DNA from: Candidatus Hodarchaeota archaeon
GTDB taxonomy: Archaea > Asgardarchaeota > Heimdallarchaeia > Hodarchaeales > Hodarchaeaceae
Assembly: GCA_016839815.1 (NCBI GenBank)
Contig: JAEOTM010000204.1
Coordinates: 32,001 to 96,000, forward strand
Length of the DNA stretch: 64,000 bases
Reading direction: 5' to 3'
A program made the translations under genes and the position numbers. Positions 2 to 32,930 of this stretch are shown here, in pieces (within the stretch, counting starts at the first letter, position 1; every line of letters starts with the position of its first letter). The notes under the pieces are model-generated. The model made no database searches. It had not been told where the DNA came from and was given only the letters and a program-made list of their open reading frames with translations.

Positions 2-1057
2 TCTCAACAAGAGATTGGCGTAGTGGTCTCAGGTACGAAAAGTACACTACTCTCTCAGGGACTTCCGCACTTCAGTTATCAAGATATTGACAAATTAGTC
101 AAGACTATTCGTAAAGAGACAGCTCGTATTGTGGATAGTGAATTAACGCGGATAACCATCAAATCATTGGGTCGATTCAAGGAGGGATTATCTGAAGGTG
201 GTTTTATTGTCCAAGATGAATTATCACCTGAACAGAAAGAAGAATTAGAGAATCTGCGAGAATCAAATCAAGAATTTAAGATTCTAATCAAAGAAAAAAA
301 TTCTGAGCTAAAGCAACTAGAAGACGAAAGGACTGGAATCCTTTCTCAGCTTGCTGAAAAAACGGATAAAATGACCACATTAGACGCTGATGTCAAGCGT
401 GTTCGATCGCAGCTCGAAAATCAACAAAAAGAGCTTGAAGTTCATCAAACTCAATCTAAGGAATTGATCACTGAACTTGAAATGAAAGAAGCCTTAATCA
501 ACAAATTGAAAGAAAACGAGCTGATTCATGAGAAGGATATCCAAGAAGCATTAGCTTCCGTAGCGGAAACTTACCAAATTCAAGAAAACTATTATCAGCG
601 GATGCTTGAAGAAGGAATTCAGTCTCGGACAAAGGAAATCCGTCAAGAAATGAAGATTGATCTGGAAGAAATGAAAACAAAATTAGACACACAAAGTCAT
701 CGATTAGAGGAAACCACACGACAACATAGAATTACTGTAGATCGATTGGAAGAAGCTCTGACTCTTGCTGAAGAAGAACTTTCAGATGCTAAATCCGAAT
801 TGAAAAAAGCAATTACTGAACGTCTTGAGAAGAATGTACTGCTTGATTATACACAACGATTACTATCCACTCACCCGTTATACGCTTCAATCCTCATTTT
901 ATTGAATTTAGGAGGTGTCCTCGATCTTCCGACATTAGCCATGTCTGTAGGGGCACATCCACTTAAATTGAGACAGATGCTTGAAGACCTCGTAAGTAAG
1001 GGTTTAATTACCATATCTTCAGACGATCCTCCAACAATCGCTGCGGTAATGGTTTGA
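2..1057 (+). CDS. Long coiled-coil protein with C-terminal winged-helix-like domain (5'-truncated by the window edge)
   Basis: The frame stays open from base 2 to the GTG at 23. E/K/Q/L-rich heptad pattern. C-terminal LDLPTLAMSVGAHPLKLRQMLEDLVSKGLITI resembles a wHTH. Confidence 0.7.
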   Translation, partial: SQQEIGVVVSGTKSTLLSQGLPHFSYQDIDKLVKTIRKETARIVDSELTRITIKSLGRFKEGLSEGGFIVQDELSPEQKEELENLRESNQEFKILIKEKNSELKQLEDERTGILSQLAEKTDKMTTLDADVKRVRSQLENQQKELEVHQTQSKELITELEMKEALINKLKENELIHEKDIQEALASVAETYQIQENYYQRMLEEGIQSRTKEIRQEMKIDLEEMKTKLDTQSHRLEETTRQHRITVDRLEEALTLAEEELSDAKSELKKAITERLEKNVLLDYTQRLLSTHPLYASILILLNLGGVLDLPTLAMSVGAHPLKLRQMLEDLVSKGLITISSDDPPTIAAVMV

Positions 1058-1076
1058 GAATTCAGAAATTATTGAA

Positions 1077-3212
1077 TTAGTCGAAAGTAGGTTGATAATA
1101 GTTTTCAGCATAACTTTCTCTAAGACGGATCTGAACAGGCTTATTTTTGAGCATTTCAAAGATAGAAGAACTTGAGGAATTTAGCTCGAATTGGTCAGTT
1201 TTTATTAGTGTCACATTCTTATTAACTGATATCAAACACCGTCGTTCATCAGGTTTTGCTTTTAATAGGGAACTCATTTGATCATAAGTCTCTTTTGTAA
1301 CTCCTAATAAATTCGCAATTTTATATGGATCAAATTTCGAATAAAACATTGTAAGAACACCCGCATTCGTCAGCATGGGCAGATCTATTATTGGGTCTGT
1401 TCCTATAAAAACCATTGACACATCATATGCTCGTAATGTCCATGGTCCTCGACCAATTATTGATTTAGGGGTTGAATGCTTAAAGGGTGTTTGTGGTAAA
1501 AGCTTGTTAATTTCGTCCAGGATAATTACATTCTGAGGTAGTTTTTCCTCCTTGAAAGGAGGCCGAAATTTTCGAATGTAATAGTAAAGATACTGGAATA
1601 TTACTTCCAGGAGTAATTGACGGCCTCTAATATCCTCCATTGCTTCAAATGATGATAAATCCAAGATGATATTATGAGAAAGAAATTGAGAAATATCAAA
1701 AGTACTAGAAGTTACGGTAAAGCATCTTCCTGTATTCCCAAATAATAATTTTGTAATACGATTGATAGTGCCCGCAGAGGTGTTTTCTAAATATGCACCT
1801 TTAAGACCAAGGGCATTAGGTTTATTTAACCATTGCAGAAATAGTTTGAAGTCACCTTTTTCTTTGATAGTCTGAATTGTTGCTAATTGGATTAACCGTC
1901 TCATCTGAGGAGATAAAGAATCAGTATCATCAACTATATTCTCAAGTAATGAAACCACAAATTGAATATGATCTTCTGGGGATATTAATGGTTCACCCCG
2001 GGGATCTAATGGAATGTCAAAGATATTGATTCCCCAAGGAAACGAATTAGATCCAAGTTTAATATAGATAAAATCCTGACAAAATGTATGTACGGGGTAT
2101 ATATATTCACCTTTAGGATCGATAATTAGGAATTTCACTTGATTTTGATGAAATTCTTGAATTAAATTGAAGATAAATCTACTTTTCCCTTCTCCTGTCA
2201 TCCCGAATACCCCCATGTGTCGTGATAAATCTTTCCCTGAAAGAATCATAGGAGAAGATGATGTTTTTCCACTCATAATTGGTATACCAATTTTAATAGT
2301 TTCATCTGTATCAAGATGAGATGCTGGAGAAGATACTCTGTATTTTTCCTTATGAGGAACGATTTGATAGCCAAAAAGCGAGTACTGATTGGTAGGAAAT
2401 GATAGAAATCTCATGAGTGTAAAACCATCTGTGAGAAGAGATGGTTGAATTGAACGGTTTCTAACATGTGCTTTAAATCGATTGAAAGATCGTAAAAAAG
2501 CAGGATATTTTCGTGTCTTGATTCCATGGGCCTTTAAAAAGACAGCGACTCGTTCCAACTTAGTCTTAAGCTGCTCCTCTGTACGTTCGACTGCTAAAAA
2601 TCGAATCGCTAGATTAAAACAGCCAGATTCTTCCATAAGATTCATACTATAAGGTTGAAAGCGATGTTCAACTTTTCCTTCGTGAATATTAAATCTGACT
2701 TGGTTTCTATTGTTATTCTCTTCTTGGGAACGGAATTCGTTAGGAATTTTTTCAGAGATGAAATTAATCTGAAAAAGGGCAAAAGTGGGATCTTCAGTAA
2801 TGATTTCAAGTAATCCATTCATAAAATTTACGTGTGTTGTAGAGGGGATGGAATCTAACTCCAGACCGAGTAAACCTCCACTGTGAAGACACGGTTCTTC
2901 AGGATCGAGAAAAAATTTTGATTCAATCATACTCAAAAGCTTGGGTATCGGATCTCTACTTGGTTCCAAAAAATCTGAATGGAGTCCAAGAGAAGTTACA
3001 AATTGTTGAAGTGTCGCTATTGCAGATTGGGTATTCTCTTTGAAAAAACGTCTCTTAGGTTTAACATGCATGCATATGTGAACCGTTTTGGGTTCAAATA
3101 TTGCATATTCTAAAGTAAAAGTATGATGTACGTTTCTTAGAATATTAATGCAAGAATGATCAGTTTTTTCAGGTACGAATTCGAAATGAAATGAGGTAGG
3201 CCTAGCTTGCAA
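1077..3212 (-). CDS. HerA/VirB4-like (DUF87) P-loop ATPase
   Basis: Walker A GVFGMTGEGKS, IIDPKGEY motif, Walker B IILDEINK. The TTG start is uncertain. Confidence 0.85.
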   Translation of the reverse strand: MQARPTSFHFEFVPEKTDHSCINILRNVHHTFTLEYAIFEPKTVHICMHVKPKRRFFKENTQSAIATLQQFVTSLGLHSDFLEPSRDPIPKLLSMIESKFFLDPEEPCLHSGGLLGLELDSIPSTTHVNFMNGLLEIITEDPTFALFQINFISEKIPNEFRSQEENNNRNQVRFNIHEGKVEHRFQPYSMNLMEESGCFNLAIRFLAVERTEEQLKTKLERVAVFLKAHGIKTRKYPAFLRSFNRFKAHVRNRSIQPSLLTDGFTLMRFLSFPTNQYSLFGYQIVPHKEKYRVSSPASHLDTDETIKIGIPIMSGKTSSSPMILSGKDLSRHMGVFGMTGEGKSRFIFNLIQEFHQNQVKFLIIDPKGEYIYPVHTFCQDFIYIKLGSNSFPWGINIFDIPLDPRGEPLISPEDHIQFVVSLLENIVDDTDSLSPQMRRLIQLATIQTIKEKGDFKLFLQWLNKPNALGLKGAYLENTSAGTINRITKLLFGNTGRCFTVTSSTFDISQFLSHNIILDLSSFEAMEDIRGRQLLLEVIFQYLYYYIRKFRPPFKEEKLPQNVIILDEINKLLPQTPFKHSTPKSIIGRGPWTLRAYDVSMVFIGTDPIIDLPMLTNAGVLTMFYSKFDPYKIANLLGVTKETYDQMSSLLKAKPDERRCLISVNKNVTLIKTDQFELNSSSSSIFEMLKNKPVQIRLRESYAENYYQPTFD

Positions 3213-14852: not shown

Positions 14853-16382
14853 ATGAGTAAGATAGAGAATTTGAAGAAAAGCCTCAACACTATCTTACTC
14901 CAATTTCCCAAGTTTGTTGAAAAATATTCACTAGAGGATCAGCAATTAATAGCTGAGTTTTTAAATGTAATAAAATTTTATGAGGAGGCAGATAACCGTC
15001 GAAATGTACTATTAGCACGCTTTACGGAATTTATCACTAAAACGAGAAATAGAAAACAATACTACGACTTACCCTTTCTCGGATTAACTGTAGTAATCGC
15101 AGAGAACGCAGTATATCACTTAAGTATTGCACGATTCTACCCCTTGGAGTTTTACAACTCACTTTTACAGCAGCTTCGGCCCCTTTTTCAACTTATTAGG
15201 CGAATAGAACCATTAATTAGCTTGAAGTATGAGGAAACACTCCAGGCGACAAGAAGTCTGTACTCACCATTATCCTCTGATGAATATCGACTGTTACAAT
15301 ATACATATTCTCTTCTAAAATCAGAAGGATTAACATCTTTAAATTCTAATTATATTAAAACAGAATTTGGAAAAAAAGAAGATATTCCCAGACGATTAAA
15401 AAAGGAAATAGAAATTTCTCGTTTTTATACATTAATTGAGGGCAGATGGTGGATTCATTTTCATTTTCCAGCCTTTGGATTAAGTCAAGTAGTATTTCAT
15501 TTTGAATTAATTGATAACACATCATTAATTGATCTAATTGACCTTAATAATCCGAATAACACAGTTTTAACCTATAGTAACGTTTTTCAAGTTTTGAATT
15601 CAAACAGTGAATATATTGGTATTTTCACTATTCCCAATAACGATATTAATCTTCTTAAGGATCTTTTTCAACGGTATGAACAGAGTAGATTAGTCAAACG
15701 AAAAGAATTAACTGTAATCAGTCATCGACTAAGGAGTACATCTTTTGATTATTATAAGGAGGAAAAGGGGTGGAGGAACTTATCAGCTAACAAAAAACAA
15801 AGTATTAAACAAGTATTGAGTTCTACAGATCCTGAAGTATATAATTTGGAGCAGAGTTCCTTTAATATTCCAAATTTTAACAATTCAAATTGGTCATTCT
15901 CTGAACACCAATCTCCTGAAAAAATTATCAAATTTTTTTGTACAACACCTTCTGAATTCGCTTATACAGGTCTTCCATTAAACATACCTTCATCAGACTA
16001 TCCTAACTCTCTTAATAGGGATGACATTGAGTTAATACATTATTTTTATTCACAAAAGGTATTAAGTATAGGTTTTATTCCTTGGCGTTTAATAGATGAT
16101 TATTCGTTAAATATCTATGTTGTAAAGGTTCCAGCTGTGCCATTAGCGAAGTTAGAGCACTTCTTAAGTGTTATTCCTTATGCCGAGATTTATTTTGCTC
16201 CAGATAGTTACTATCTGTGGACCGTTCTCCCACCCACTATAATCAGCTGGATAAAAAATACTCTTAAATGGTCTATCATTCCTGTACAACGAATTCATGT
16301 AAGACAGGAATTAACATCAGAGTGGTTTGATACGAAATCACTATTATGGACTAGACCTGAAATTTTGGGACGAAATAAGTAA
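14853..16382 (+). CDS. ~500-aa putative tandem Lrp/AsnC-like (wHTH+RAM) regulator
   Basis: Motifs align by eye with 31219-32676: FHFPAFGLSQV vs LDMGKLGYETY, STSFDYYKEEKGW vs SWNLSTLQEGKNKW, FLSVIPYAEIYF vs FCLTLPHIDLF. Confidence 0.55.
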   Translation: MSKIENLKKSLNTILLQFPKFVEKYSLEDQQLIAEFLNVIKFYEEADNRRNVLLARFTEFITKTRNRKQYYDLPFLGLTVVIAENAVYHLSIARFYPLEFYNSLLQQLRPLFQLIRRIEPLISLKYEETLQATRSLYSPLSSDEYRLLQYTYSLLKSEGLTSLNSNYIKTEFGKKEDIPRRLKKEIEISRFYTLIEGRWWIHFHFPAFGLSQVVFHFELIDNTSLIDLIDLNNPNNTVLTYSNVFQVLNSNSEYIGIFTIPNNDINLLKDLFQRYEQSRLVKRKELTVISHRLRSTSFDYYKEEKGWRNLSANKKQSIKQVLSSTDPEVYNLEQSSFNIPNFNNSNWSFSEHQSPEKIIKFFCTTPSEFAYTGLPLNIPSSDYPNSLNRDDIELIHYFYSQKVLSIGFIPWRLIDDYSLNIYVVKVPAVPLAKLEHFLSVIPYAEIYFAPDSYYLWTVLPPTIISWIKNTLKWSIIPVQRIHVRQELTSEWFDTKSLLWTRPEILGRNK

Positions 16383-16451
16383 GATTAAAGATGTGTTCTG
16401 TAGAAAAAAAAAGGAGGAAATATAAGGAATAGTATCCTTAAGTTATCACAA

Positions 16452-16487
16452 TTATTTACCGTTTCCACGGTCTCCTGGGGGCATCAT
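16452..16487 (-). CDS. Putative 11-aa micropeptide MMPPGDRGNGK
   Basis: GC-rich 36-nt ORF in an AT-rich spacer. GAGGT RBS 7 nt upstream, TTAAAAAG about 35 nt upstream, minus-strand T-tract at about 16404-16412 downstream. Confidence 0.5.
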   Translation of the reverse strand: MMPPGDRGNGK

Positions 16488-30768: not shown

Positions 30769-30936
30769 TCGGGAGAACACCTGTTGAAGATGGATAATTA
30801 AGTAGAAGATTGTGTAAGAAAATATAGATACTTGTGTGAAAATCTCGTTTTGAGATTTATAAATTCACCCTGCCAGAATGACAACGTAATGAGCGAGATT
30901 TTAATAGAAAAGTCAGAAAAAAGAAGAGAATGGGTA

Positions 30937-31131
30937 TTAATACCCAATAGGGGGATAAGGTCCTTCTAGCGGGTCAGCTATCCCTTGACTGAGAGCAAAG
31001 AATGTTACAACCAGCCAAAGGGTGATCCAGAAGATTTTCATCCAATTTTTTCGCTTCGGGATTCGATTAAACACTTTTGGTCTCCTTCTGTATAATTTGT
31101 CAAAAAGGACTCTGAGCAATCTACTGCTCAA
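30937..31131 (-). CDS. Small secreted pro-peptide candidate; predicted mature tail DPLEGPYPPIGY
   Basis: Basic n-region, hydrophobic core, SQGIA putative cleavage site, 12-aa Pro/Gly-rich tail. Alternative ATG at 31041. Divergent from the 485-aa regulator. Confidence 0.6.
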   Translation of the reverse strand: MSSRLLRVLFDKLYRRRPKVFNRIPKRKNWMKIFWITLWLVVTFFALSQGIADPLEGPYPPIGY

Positions 31132-31218
31132 TGAGTATTGTGATTCAGGCTTATATATTCGAAAGCAGTTCTTGGGAGACTTTAATCAAAAAGAGGGGTA
31201 AACTAATGGGGAAAGTTA

Positions 31219-32676
31219 ATGCACCAAAGTCAGGAAGTAGAGCCTCTTTTTGAATCTACTGCCATTGTAGATCCTTTTGTACGAGATTTCTGTGCATTTT
31301 GGGAACACATTCACACCGAAGTGATAAAACGTAGGGTACGGAAAATATCGAAAACCGCAGAAATCACTCAAGCTCTCAAAGATGTCCAAACTATTCGTTT
31401 TTATGAAAAGTACAAATCTCATCCCTTACTTGAATACTCGGAAGCGTGGATGAAAACATTGGGGTCATTCTCAATCCTCTGGTATGGAGGTCGTGTGTTA
31501 ATTCCCCTTCGATTAGTAACTTATGAGCTAGCATATGCACAGGATCAATTATTACATACGTTCTTGAAGAATATCTCAACCAATCAGATCCAAGGAAATG
31601 AGGAGACCTTATTTCGGGTTCTTTTTCCCAAGTTACTTGAAATGGCACTTCCTTTATCTAAATCAGATCTTATTTTATTGAAAGGATTCCAAACGGCATA
31701 TATAAAAAGTCAGAACCGTCGAACTGGACCCTCCACTCAAACCTTTGCATACCATATTCCGGAATTAAACGCTGAGACGATCCGCAATAAACTAGAATAT
31801 TTCCGTTATTTTCAGCTAGCCATCCCTATGCATTTTCTCGATATGGGAAAATTAGGTTATGAAACATATCTAACAGTCCATTCGAGCATGGTACCTGACC
31901 AGCTTTCACGATATTGCCTAATAGATATCAACATGGGAAGTGCACGATTAGGCCTTTTCCAACTGCCTTATAGTAGACCGGAACTACTTACACTTCTAAA
32001 AAGCACTCAAAGTGAGGAATACCCTACTCCTTCAAAATTGATTCCTATGACCCGAAGAGTGCATTCGTGGAACCTTTCTACTCTCCAAGAAGGAAAAAAC
32101 AAATGGATAAAACCCTATTCATTTTTTTATGGGGATCCTTCTTCCCCTCCACAATTCGCTCCTGCCACCATGGACATGTCCCTAGATCCATTGTTCCAAC
32201 CTTTCCGTCCATTAACTCATGCAGATGTAATTTTGCTTTCTTTTCTTGTATCTGTAGGAAAAATTCTCAGACTCAAAGATTTAGCCTCTCAAGTTCAGCT
32301 GCATCCCAATACAGTATCAAGGCTTTTAGCTGAATATCAAAAGGCTGGTTTACTCAATCAAATAGTCCAATATTACAATCTAGGCTTAAATCTCCCAGTT
32401 TATCTTTTCATTTCGATACCAAATACTACTAATCGTATTCACTTCCTAGATTTCTGTCTTACTCTCCCCCATATTGATCTTTTTACAACAACCACTACTG
32501 AAGAATCAGTGTACTTCGGCCGAACTGATCTTCCTCATTTTTGGTGTCGAGATTTTGTAACACGATTGCAGTTTTTACGTAACAAGTATTCCGAGATGTC
32601 TTTTCATTATACCTTTGAACCTCCTTTAGTGATACGACGAAATCTCTCCCTAATGGACACTTATCAACAATCTTAG
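31219..32676 (+). CDS. ~485-aa putative tandem Lrp/AsnC-like (wHTH+RAM) regulator
   Basis: Two HTH-like segments (LNAETIRNKLEYF; LKDLASQVQLHPNTVSRLLAEYQKAGLL), each followed by an Lrp-like linker (DMGKLGY; YYNLGL). Confidence 0.65.
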   Translation: MHQSQEVEPLFESTAIVDPFVRDFCAFWEHIHTEVIKRRVRKISKTAEITQALKDVQTIRFYEKYKSHPLLEYSEAWMKTLGSFSILWYGGRVLIPLRLVTYELAYAQDQLLHTFLKNISTNQIQGNEETLFRVLFPKLLEMALPLSKSDLILLKGFQTAYIKSQNRRTGPSTQTFAYHIPELNAETIRNKLEYFRYFQLAIPMHFLDMGKLGYETYLTVHSSMVPDQLSRYCLIDINMGSARLGLFQLPYSRPELLTLLKSTQSEEYPTPSKLIPMTRRVHSWNLSTLQEGKNKWIKPYSFFYGDPSSPPQFAPATMDMSLDPLFQPFRPLTHADVILLSFLVSVGKILRLKDLASQVQLHPNTVSRLLAEYQKAGLLNQIVQYYNLGLNLPVYLFISIPNTTNRIHFLDFCLTLPHIDLFTTTTTEESVYFGRTDLPHFWCRDFVTRLQFLRNKYSEMSFHYTFEPPLVIRRNLSLMDTYQQS

Positions 32677-32790: not shown

Positions 32791-32904
32791 ATGAGCACTG
32801 GGATAGTTTTTTGGCCCTCAGTGAATAAACAAAGCCAAAGTATGTCAAAACCTCTCAGTATCCGTGAGTCGCGTTGTCAGGGGTGTCCAATGCGCCTCGG
32901 ATGA
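32791..32904 (+). CDS. Putative 37-aa peptide with C-terminal CxxC (MSTGIVFWPSVNKQSQSMSKPLSIRESRCQGCPMRLG)
   Basis: AAGGGG upstream of the ATG. The stop codon lies inside a strong hairpin followed by a T-tract. Confidence 0.45.
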   Translation: MSTGIVFWPSVNKQSQSMSKPLSIRESRCQGCPMRLG

Positions 32905-32930
32905 GGACTTCTTCCTCATCCCCTTTTTTT
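32899..32930 (+). terminator. Hairpin plus T-tract terminator
   Basis: Perfect 9-bp stem ggatgagga-cttct-tcctcatcc, then cc and T7. Confidence 0.7.

Follow-up and report, generated by a model that had tools for sequence, protein, structure and literature searches.

A divergent gene pair of Hodarchaeales encodes a tandem Lrp-like regulator and a small, putatively exported protein

Introduction

In the RRNPP(A) and arbitrium systems of Bacillota and phages (Rap-Phr, PlcR-PapR, PrgX-PrgQ, AimR-AimP), the gene of a cytoplasmic regulator adjoins a gene of about 40-55 codons for a signal-like leader and a short C-terminal peptide. Such modules exist in multiple cognate copies within a genome, and their leaders diverge more slowly than the peptides. 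These systems are the closest functional analogues of a divergent gene pair that we analyse here in a 64,000-nucleotide stretch of DNA from Candidatus Hodarchaeota archaeon (assembly GCA_016839815.1, contig JAEOTM010000204.1, positions 32,001 to 96,000; hereafter the window), consisting of a 485-residue regulator with two Lrp-like modules and a small gene for a signal-like protein. The pair shares the traits listed above and differs in its putative receptor, which has a tandem Lrp/AsnC fold, its Asgard host and a long, conserved basic n-region. No tetratricopeptide repeat (TPR) was matched in the regulator family with Pfam or NCBIfam models, and since the receptor lacks a TPR the module is not a member of RRNPP. 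A preliminary description of the locus, made from the DNA letters, had called the pair analogous but non-homologous to RRNPP and arbitrium systems, which agrees with the tandem Lrp fold of the receptor.

The second group to compare with is formed by local Lrp/AsnC regulators such as E. coli AsnC-asnA, Sulfolobales BarR and Ss-LrpB (PMC2995911). They likewise combine a winged helix-turn-helix (wHTH) and a RAM domain with a divergent target gene and a short common control region containing palindromic elements, and by analogy the present regulator is likely to share their autoregulation. Unlike in these proteins, two modules are joined in one 485-residue chain behind a 140-residue N-terminal domain, and the target is a predicted exported or membrane peptide of 45 residues instead of an enzyme or transporter. 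Two Lrp-like modules forming a pseudo-dimer in one unit are also found in NirDL and AhbA-AhbB (4ch7, 4czc, 4czd), from which the Hodarchaeales protein is distinguished by the extra N-terminal domain, a retained HTH_AsnC sequence signal and many matches per genome.

A 2025 study describes archaeal cell-cell communication as a subject on which "little is known", and the Haloferax signal that it reports is a proteinase-K-resistant small molecule (PMC12240190). In the literature that we searched, no description was found of this protein pair or of an archaeal regulator/pro-peptide cassette.

Results and Discussion

The two genes form a conserved pair

The genes under study are the following.

31219..32676, plus strand: regulator gene, 485 residues, with an N-terminal helical domain and two Lrp-like modules
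30937..31074, minus strand: small gene, 45 residues, start codon GTG 31074 (alternative starts ATG 31041 and TTG 31131)
31082..31086, minus strand: Shine-Dalgarno-like AGGAG, 7 nt ahead of GTG 31074

The small gene had been introduced as a minus-strand open reading frame (ORF) at 30937-31131, read from TTG 31131 into a 64-residue product and separated by 87 bp from the regulator. This ORF is present, its product ends in ...FFALSQGIADPLEGPYPPIGY, and the 12-residue tail is confirmed. The start is most likely to lie further downstream. At 4 orthologous loci the homologous ORF begins with an ATG located 13 residues ahead of the hydrophobic core, and this ATG aligns with GTG 31074 of the window, which is preceded by AGGAG with a 7-nt spacer. 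Because of this alignment and the upstream AGGAG, a 45-residue product is preferred over the 64-residue one, and the divergent layout stands with an intergenic distance of 144 bp instead of 87 bp. Across the family the start of the small gene is preceded by a Shine-Dalgarno-like tetramer in 35/52 members, versus 11/52 in a control window.

The regulator family is present in all 21 of the 21 genomes of the genus, with 1-14 matches each in a whole-genome profile search. Weaker full-length matches occur in the two other genera of the order, and the rest of the class shows only partial Lrp-like matches. A metagenome scan with alignment A1 gave 3 loci. At the first eleven loci, both close orthologues and regulators of only 30-32% identity bear a divergent small ORF of the same build. 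To quantify the pairing, 75 non-redundant regulator genes were collected after fetching extra regions, and ORFs were scored for an architecture of basic segment, hydrophobic core and short tail. Such an ORF lies upstream and divergent at 53 of 66 regulators, while it is found upstream on the regulator's strand at 9/66 and downstream at 5/70 (control 1) or 13/70 (control 2). A hidden Markov model (HMM) of the small protein identified a homologous divergent small gene of 42-57 residues at 53 of the 67 regulators with upstream DNA. In the window's own 4.2-Mb assembly, only 2 of 82,570 ORF tails matched this HMM significantly (E 4e-19 and 1e-17; third-best E 0.046), and both adjoin the 2 full-length regulator paralogues. 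The intergenic length is nearly constant across the family, mostly about 140 bp.

Pairing of the regulator with the small gene exceeds chance. The preliminary description had made its reading depend on whether homologues of the regulator have conserved adjacent small ORFs; they do, down to relatives recognized at the profile level. The pair is retained in other genera of the order (G070, locus L085, and G069, locus L043), a member from another genus having a longer tail, and the members with weak profile E-values (P0061, P0073, P0075) have a divergent small gene with a transmembrane (TM) segment and tails such as PVPAPPGGDGGSTGPT.

The regulator is a fused variant of Lrp/AsnC

The preliminary assignment of two helix-turn-helix (HTH) plus Lrp-like modules to the ORF at 31219-32676 on the plus strand is borne out by fold and profile. 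A helical domain (residues 1-140) is followed by module 1 (wHTH 148-207, RAM 214-284), a linker and module 2 (wHTH 334-385, RAM 392-465). The AlphaFold2 model, built from a 45-sequence alignment, has a mean predicted local distance difference test score (pLDDT) of 90.5 and a predicted template modelling score (pTM) of 0.88. Foldseek ranks NirDL, a siroheme decarboxylase of fused Lrp-like build, first (4ch7, E 3e-6, 358 columns), ahead of many single Lrp/AsnC regulators with TM-scores of 0.55-0.67. An exhaustive VIA structure search gave the same order: 4czc_A (Z 13.8, residues 148-483, 275 aligned) is far above the next rows, in which whole single Lrp proteins are placed on residues 329-483 (Z 6-7, root mean square deviation 3.4-4.2, 135-148 residues). 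Residues 1-140 had no clear structural match in this search.

At the sequence level, the family profile matches PH0140 (E 3.8e-10, second module) and PH0061 (E 3.9e-6, first module) in the PDB, and HTH_AsnC-type/HTH_24 models (PF13404/PF13412) are matched by 7 of 45 members. The window protein alone gave only sub-threshold HTH matches in Pfam and none in NCBIfam. The RAM domain PF01037 was not detected by sequence in the window protein or the 45 members and is recognized by fold only. The family thus has the AsnC-type winged HTH of Lrp/AsnC (feast/famine regulatory) proteins and lacks their canonical form, a single RAM-dimerising module of about 150 residues, having two fused modules and an N-terminal domain instead. 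Judged from the model and the profiles, the regulator is by descent an architectural variant of Lrp/AsnC, not a canonical member. A database search found 10 close homologues, all in metagenome-assembled genomes (MAGs) of Hodarchaeales, and the profile search 74 cluster representatives. The language-model neighbours of the regulator include large unnamed HTH_24/AsnC clusters of 440-494 residues from Thorarchaeota.

Anatomy and selection of the small protein

The product of the small gene reads VFNRIPKRKNWMK (basic n-region), IFWITLWLVVTFFA (hydrophobic core), LSQGIA (small-polar c-region) and DPLEGPYPPIGY (tail), its last parts being encoded as follows.

30976..30993, minus strand: c-region LSQGIA, which bears the small-x-small pattern (G-x-A) seen across the family and may be a signal peptidase I site
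30940..30975, minus strand: codons of the 12-residue C-terminal tail DPLEGPYPPIGY, candidate released peptide (codon table)
30931..30946, minus strand: terminator-like hairpin plus T-rich run overlapping the small-gene stop codon (consensus scan only)

Column counts were made on 52 non-redundant small-protein sequences. The N-terminal part of about 20 residues starts with Met, followed by x-[RK]-K-L-R-x-R and more basic residues; in the RxR motif, the first Arg column has R or K in 45/52 and the second has R in 32/52. A near-invariant K or R (49/52) precedes L-L-P and the 13-residue hydrophobic core. The c-region is rich in S, T and A, with the pattern S-x-S-L-G-x-A ending in G-x-A, where small residues occupy both outer columns in 92-94% of the sequences (G/A/T 48/52 and A/G/S 49/52). 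Beyond G-x-A often comes D-P or P-P and then a Pro/Gly-rich tail of 10-17 residues. The arrangement corresponds to the n/h/c layout of Sec signal peptides: a basic n-region, a 13-residue core, and small residues at -1 and -3, for which two -3/-1 sites are possible. It would place the tail outside the membrane.

Other export routes and sorting signals fit less well. A class III (pilin-type) signal was rejected for want of a [KR]-[GAS] cleavage motif ahead of the hydrophobic core, a Tat signal because the conserved RxR lies about 14 residues ahead of the core and is not a twin arginine, and a lipoprotein because there is no lipobox Cys. Sorting by the PGF-CTERM/archaeosortase route was rejected since the motif order is reversed and its position N-terminal.

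Selection was measured on 6 orthologous species pairs from another clade than that of the window, in which synonymous pS is about 0.35-0.47. The ratio of nonsynonymous to synonymous differences (pN/pS) is 0.12 for the N-terminus and core of the small protein and 0.63 for its tail; the cognate regulator has an overall value of 0.21, ranging from 0.11 to 0.31 per 30 codons. Among all pairs with a regulator identity of 70% or more, the c-region is the best preserved (83% identity), ahead of the n-region (78%), the core (74%) and the tail (54%). By these comparisons constraint is strongest in the c-region, where processing may take place, and variation is greatest in the tail; the ORF at 30937-31074 is a real gene on which purifying selection acts.

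The type of tail tracks the clade in the regulator tree. Tails of the ADP...PPP type occur in the outgroup and two clades, and Gly-rich tails with a terminal hydrophobic residue and Asp/Glu in one large derived clade. The tree comes from a quick, unfinished search and relatives share labels, which limits this observation to co-inheritance. In a database of 5.8 billion proteins the small family comprises 27 clusters, all from Hodarchaeales-type MAGs; none has a Pfam domain or a name beyond "hypothetical protein".

The control region

Two features of the intergenic DNA were examined by comparison with orthologues.

31150..31165, no strand assigned: conserved intergenic element CTTATATATTCGAAAG, present in 5/5 orthologues of the window's clade
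31112..31131, minus strand: hairpin TGAGCA-N6-TGCTCA with a T5 run behind it, lying in what is presumably the small gene's 5' leader

The element CTTATATATTCGAAAG sits 61-72 bp from the regulator start in the window's clade. Its minus-strand reading, TTCGAATATATAAG, resembles a TFB-recognition element (BRE) and TATA box and may serve the small gene. In many paralogues of the Gly-rich clade, a palindrome CCGGATA-N2-3-TTCTCTAGA(GAAA) lies 58-84 bp upstream of the regulator, and this clade also has a TTTAAAT/TTATAAAT box near -35. The conserved intergenic palindromes include TTCTCTAGAGAA, with CCGGATA in many paralogues, and TTCGAA. TTCGAA was rejected as an operator common to the family: it occurs in only 12 of 52 intergenic regions, confined to two clades, and within the window's clade a BRE/TATA of the small gene is the better reading. 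Lrp proteins bind palindromic sites and mostly regulate themselves (PMC2995911), and by analogy the regulator may bind the intergenic palindromes and be autoregulated.

The hairpin at 31112-31131 has 8 pairs in the terminator scan, with a perfect 6-bp core, and falls within the 64-residue reading. Its position is kept in 4-5 orthologues with different stem bases, 2 of 6 pairs having changed on both sides, a weak signal from few sequences. Conceivable roles are attenuation or, as a 5' structure, stabilisation.

On the far side of the regulator one more candidate signal was noted.

32899..32921, plus strand: terminator-like 9-bp stem plus T7, 220 bp past the regulator stop (consensus scan only)

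A 37-residue CxxC ORF at 32791-32904 ends within this stem, the apparent regulator terminator.

Proposed mechanism

A module made of a cognate regulator and a small signal-like, putatively exported protein is established by the existence and conservation of the gene pair, by the regulator's fold, and by the small protein's n/h/c layout and pattern of selection. We propose that this module is self-contained and peculiar to Hodarchaeales, with its two genes transcribed divergently. The 485-residue protein would be a cytoplasmic transcription factor in which the fused Lrp/AsnC modules form an intramolecular pseudo-dimer, supplemented by an N-terminal helical domain. Judging from local Lrp regulators, it probably binds the roughly 140 bp between the two genes and from there controls both its own gene and the small one. 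The 45-residue product would insert in an N-in/C-out orientation through its Sec-type signal-like sequence and would most likely be cut at the conserved S-x-S-L-G-x-A, releasing a Pro/Gly-rich peptide of 10-17 residues outside the cell.

Regulator and peptide are considered a cognate pair because each module has, after duplication, retained a small gene of its own whose tail differs from the others. We tentatively favour processing and release of the tail, at a confidence just short of even, because no feature is better conserved than the i/i+2 small-residue pattern behind the polar c-region, and because the tail behaves as a diversifying product. Candidate peptides are DPLEGPYPPIGY for the window pair and IADPLEGPYPPIGY. 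The window's own genome offers a permissive context with two archaeal signal peptidase I genes and at least 15 genes for family-5 (SBP_bac_5, Opp/Dpp-type) peptide-binding proteins. Feedback of the peptide on the regulator is a more doubtful step. The locus had earlier been described as an exported pro-peptide with a sensing regulator. Of that description, the pairing, the tandem Lrp architecture, the signal-like layout and the fast-evolving tail are supported, and export and sensing carry the strengths given here.

Several observations weigh against release of a peptide under the control of this regulator. The closest structural match, NirDL, is an enzyme and not a regulator. The n-region is unusually long (about 20 residues) and conserved in sequence (MxxKLRxR...K-LLP), which is atypical for a signal peptide, and the 19-21 apolar or small residues of core plus c-region would suffice to form a transmembrane helix. 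Furthermore, 14 of the 67 regulators have no canonical small gene. Most of them are the second regulators in tandem arrays, whose members have a single small gene in common; the L007/L008 clade is also among them, and at one rearranged locus the small gene lies downstream of the regulator.

Alternative explanations

A full peptide-signalling loop is a subset of the proposed mechanism with feedback added. The tail would accumulate outside, be re-imported, e.g., by an Opp-type system, bind the tandem-Lrp protein and alter its DNA binding, in a quorum-sensing-like manner analogous to RRNPP and arbitrium. The evidence of pairing and n/h/c layout applies here as well. The tail diversifies among orthologues and recent paralogues while the leader is conserved, as in pherotype systems, and the up to 14 matches per genome recall Rap-Phr expansions. 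The peptide-binding protein genes of the genome are compatible with re-import, and local Lrp regulators usually sense a ligand tied to the divergent gene, as is established for AsnC/asnA and BarR (PMC2995911). On the other hand, known ligands of RAM domains are amino acids or small metabolites that bind in small pockets (PMC2995911), and no peptide-binding domain is recognized in the regulator, for whose N-terminal domain no clear structural counterpart was found. The neighbours examined include no linked transporter or protease and differ from locus to locus, for which reason a conserved third gene of this kind was rejected. Rapid evolution of the tail may also be mere relaxed constraint. We consider the complete loop possible, on balance unlikely.

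The product might instead stay in the membrane as an uncleaved bitopic micro-protein. Its basic N-terminus could dock the regulator, for instance at the N-terminal domain, and tether or release it as a co-regulator, or the protein could be a plain regulated membrane effector. This would suit a long, conserved n-region under stronger purifying selection than the regulator average (0.12 versus 0.21), an apolar span of about 20 residues running up to D-P, and retention in a 1:1 ratio after duplication, which is typical of physically interacting pairs. It fits less well that the best conserved feature is a small-x-small i/i+2 pattern after a polar, S/T-rich c-region, which points to a protease site and not to a helix-packing motif, and that a 12-residue external tail offers an effector little. 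No fused regulator-anchor forms were found either: the sole long member inspected, P0019, is an apparent chimeric call running into a PGF-CTERM-like protein. Permanent membrane retention is in our opinion a tenable, rather improbable outcome.

The two remaining explanations are effectively excluded. That the regulator is a siroheme decarboxylase of the NirDL/AhbAB type and the small ORF unrelated to it would agree with the best structural match, but identity to NirDL is about 10%, no siroheme-decarboxylase or AsnC_trans_reg2 model is matched, genomes have 1-14 matches, no haem-pathway genes occur among the neighbours examined, and linkage to the small gene is tight; we regard it as very improbable. 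Even less credible is that the small ORF is merely a frame open by chance within a promoter region. It is short, begins with a codon other than ATG in the window and is not called in some assemblies, but it is homologous at more than 50 loci, with a pN/pS of 0.12, conserved start and stop positions, Shine-Dalgarno motifs and genome-wide exclusivity.

Variant and related loci

Arrays of 3-5 regulator paralogues were seen at G052:C234 (L050), G061:C14 (L051), G052:C126 (L052) and G059:C14 (L054); co-directional tandem regulators have one divergent small gene in common. In the L007/L008 clade no convincing small gene was found, L008 having a possible degenerate copy and L007 a frame-broken version. 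The next divergent gene of these loci, about 640 bp away (1760-2263 and 1560-2150, respectively, minus strand), encodes a protein of 167-196 residues that also opens with a basic segment and a TM helix (MGRNRFDLILFLSLVSISLLLY...).

For the distant members P0075 and P0061 (L090 873-1374 and L092 899-1453, minus strand), the divergent small TM gene has two neighbours behind it on its own strand: first an ORF of 91-133 residues, then an Arf-family GTPase gene (PF00025). Here the regulator's control may extend to an operon with a eukaryote-signature GTPase in it. Locus L048, from another family of the class, has a 577-residue ORF with an Lrp-like part (835-2565, minus strand) preceded by a small ORF on the same strand (2662-2820, minus strand) that is signal-peptide-like and ends in AIAPGNGGFGPDPNSDGG. 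This pair may be an analogous module in a co-directional layout.

The window contains a second double-Lrp-like gene at 14853-16487 (509 residues), with an 11-codon ORF, MMPPGDRGNGK, placed tail-to-tail with it at 16452-16487 on the minus strand. The two families are alike in that a double Lrp-like protein of about 500 residues is linked to a tiny gene for a Pro-containing peptide; they differ in that the micro-ORF is tail-to-tail and has no signal sequence. No MPP micro-ORF was found downstream of the 485-residue regulator gene, and kinship of the two double-Lrp families was rejected, the hhalign E-value of 0.097 being not significant. The two cases suggest that coupling of double-Lrp proteins to Pro-containing micro-peptides is a theme in the genus.

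Implications

The boldest proposal, which we regard as improbable, is that Hodarchaeales have a peptide signalling of their own, in which secreted Pro/Gly-rich peptides of 10-17 residues are each sensed by a cognate cytoplasmic tandem-Lrp receptor, with more than 10 private channels per genome. If true, this signalling would be non-homologous to RRNPP, and we found no earlier report of a genetically defined archaeal peptide pheromone-receptor family. Hodarchaeales are among the closest known archaeal relatives of eukaryotes and belong to the lineage most relevant to eukaryote origins. The window pair provides a concrete, testable candidate, for which the peptides, the receptor and the 144-bp control region are all defined. 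Even without signalling, the module would represent a new fused Lrp architecture together with a new conserved micro-protein family that is often missed by gene callers.

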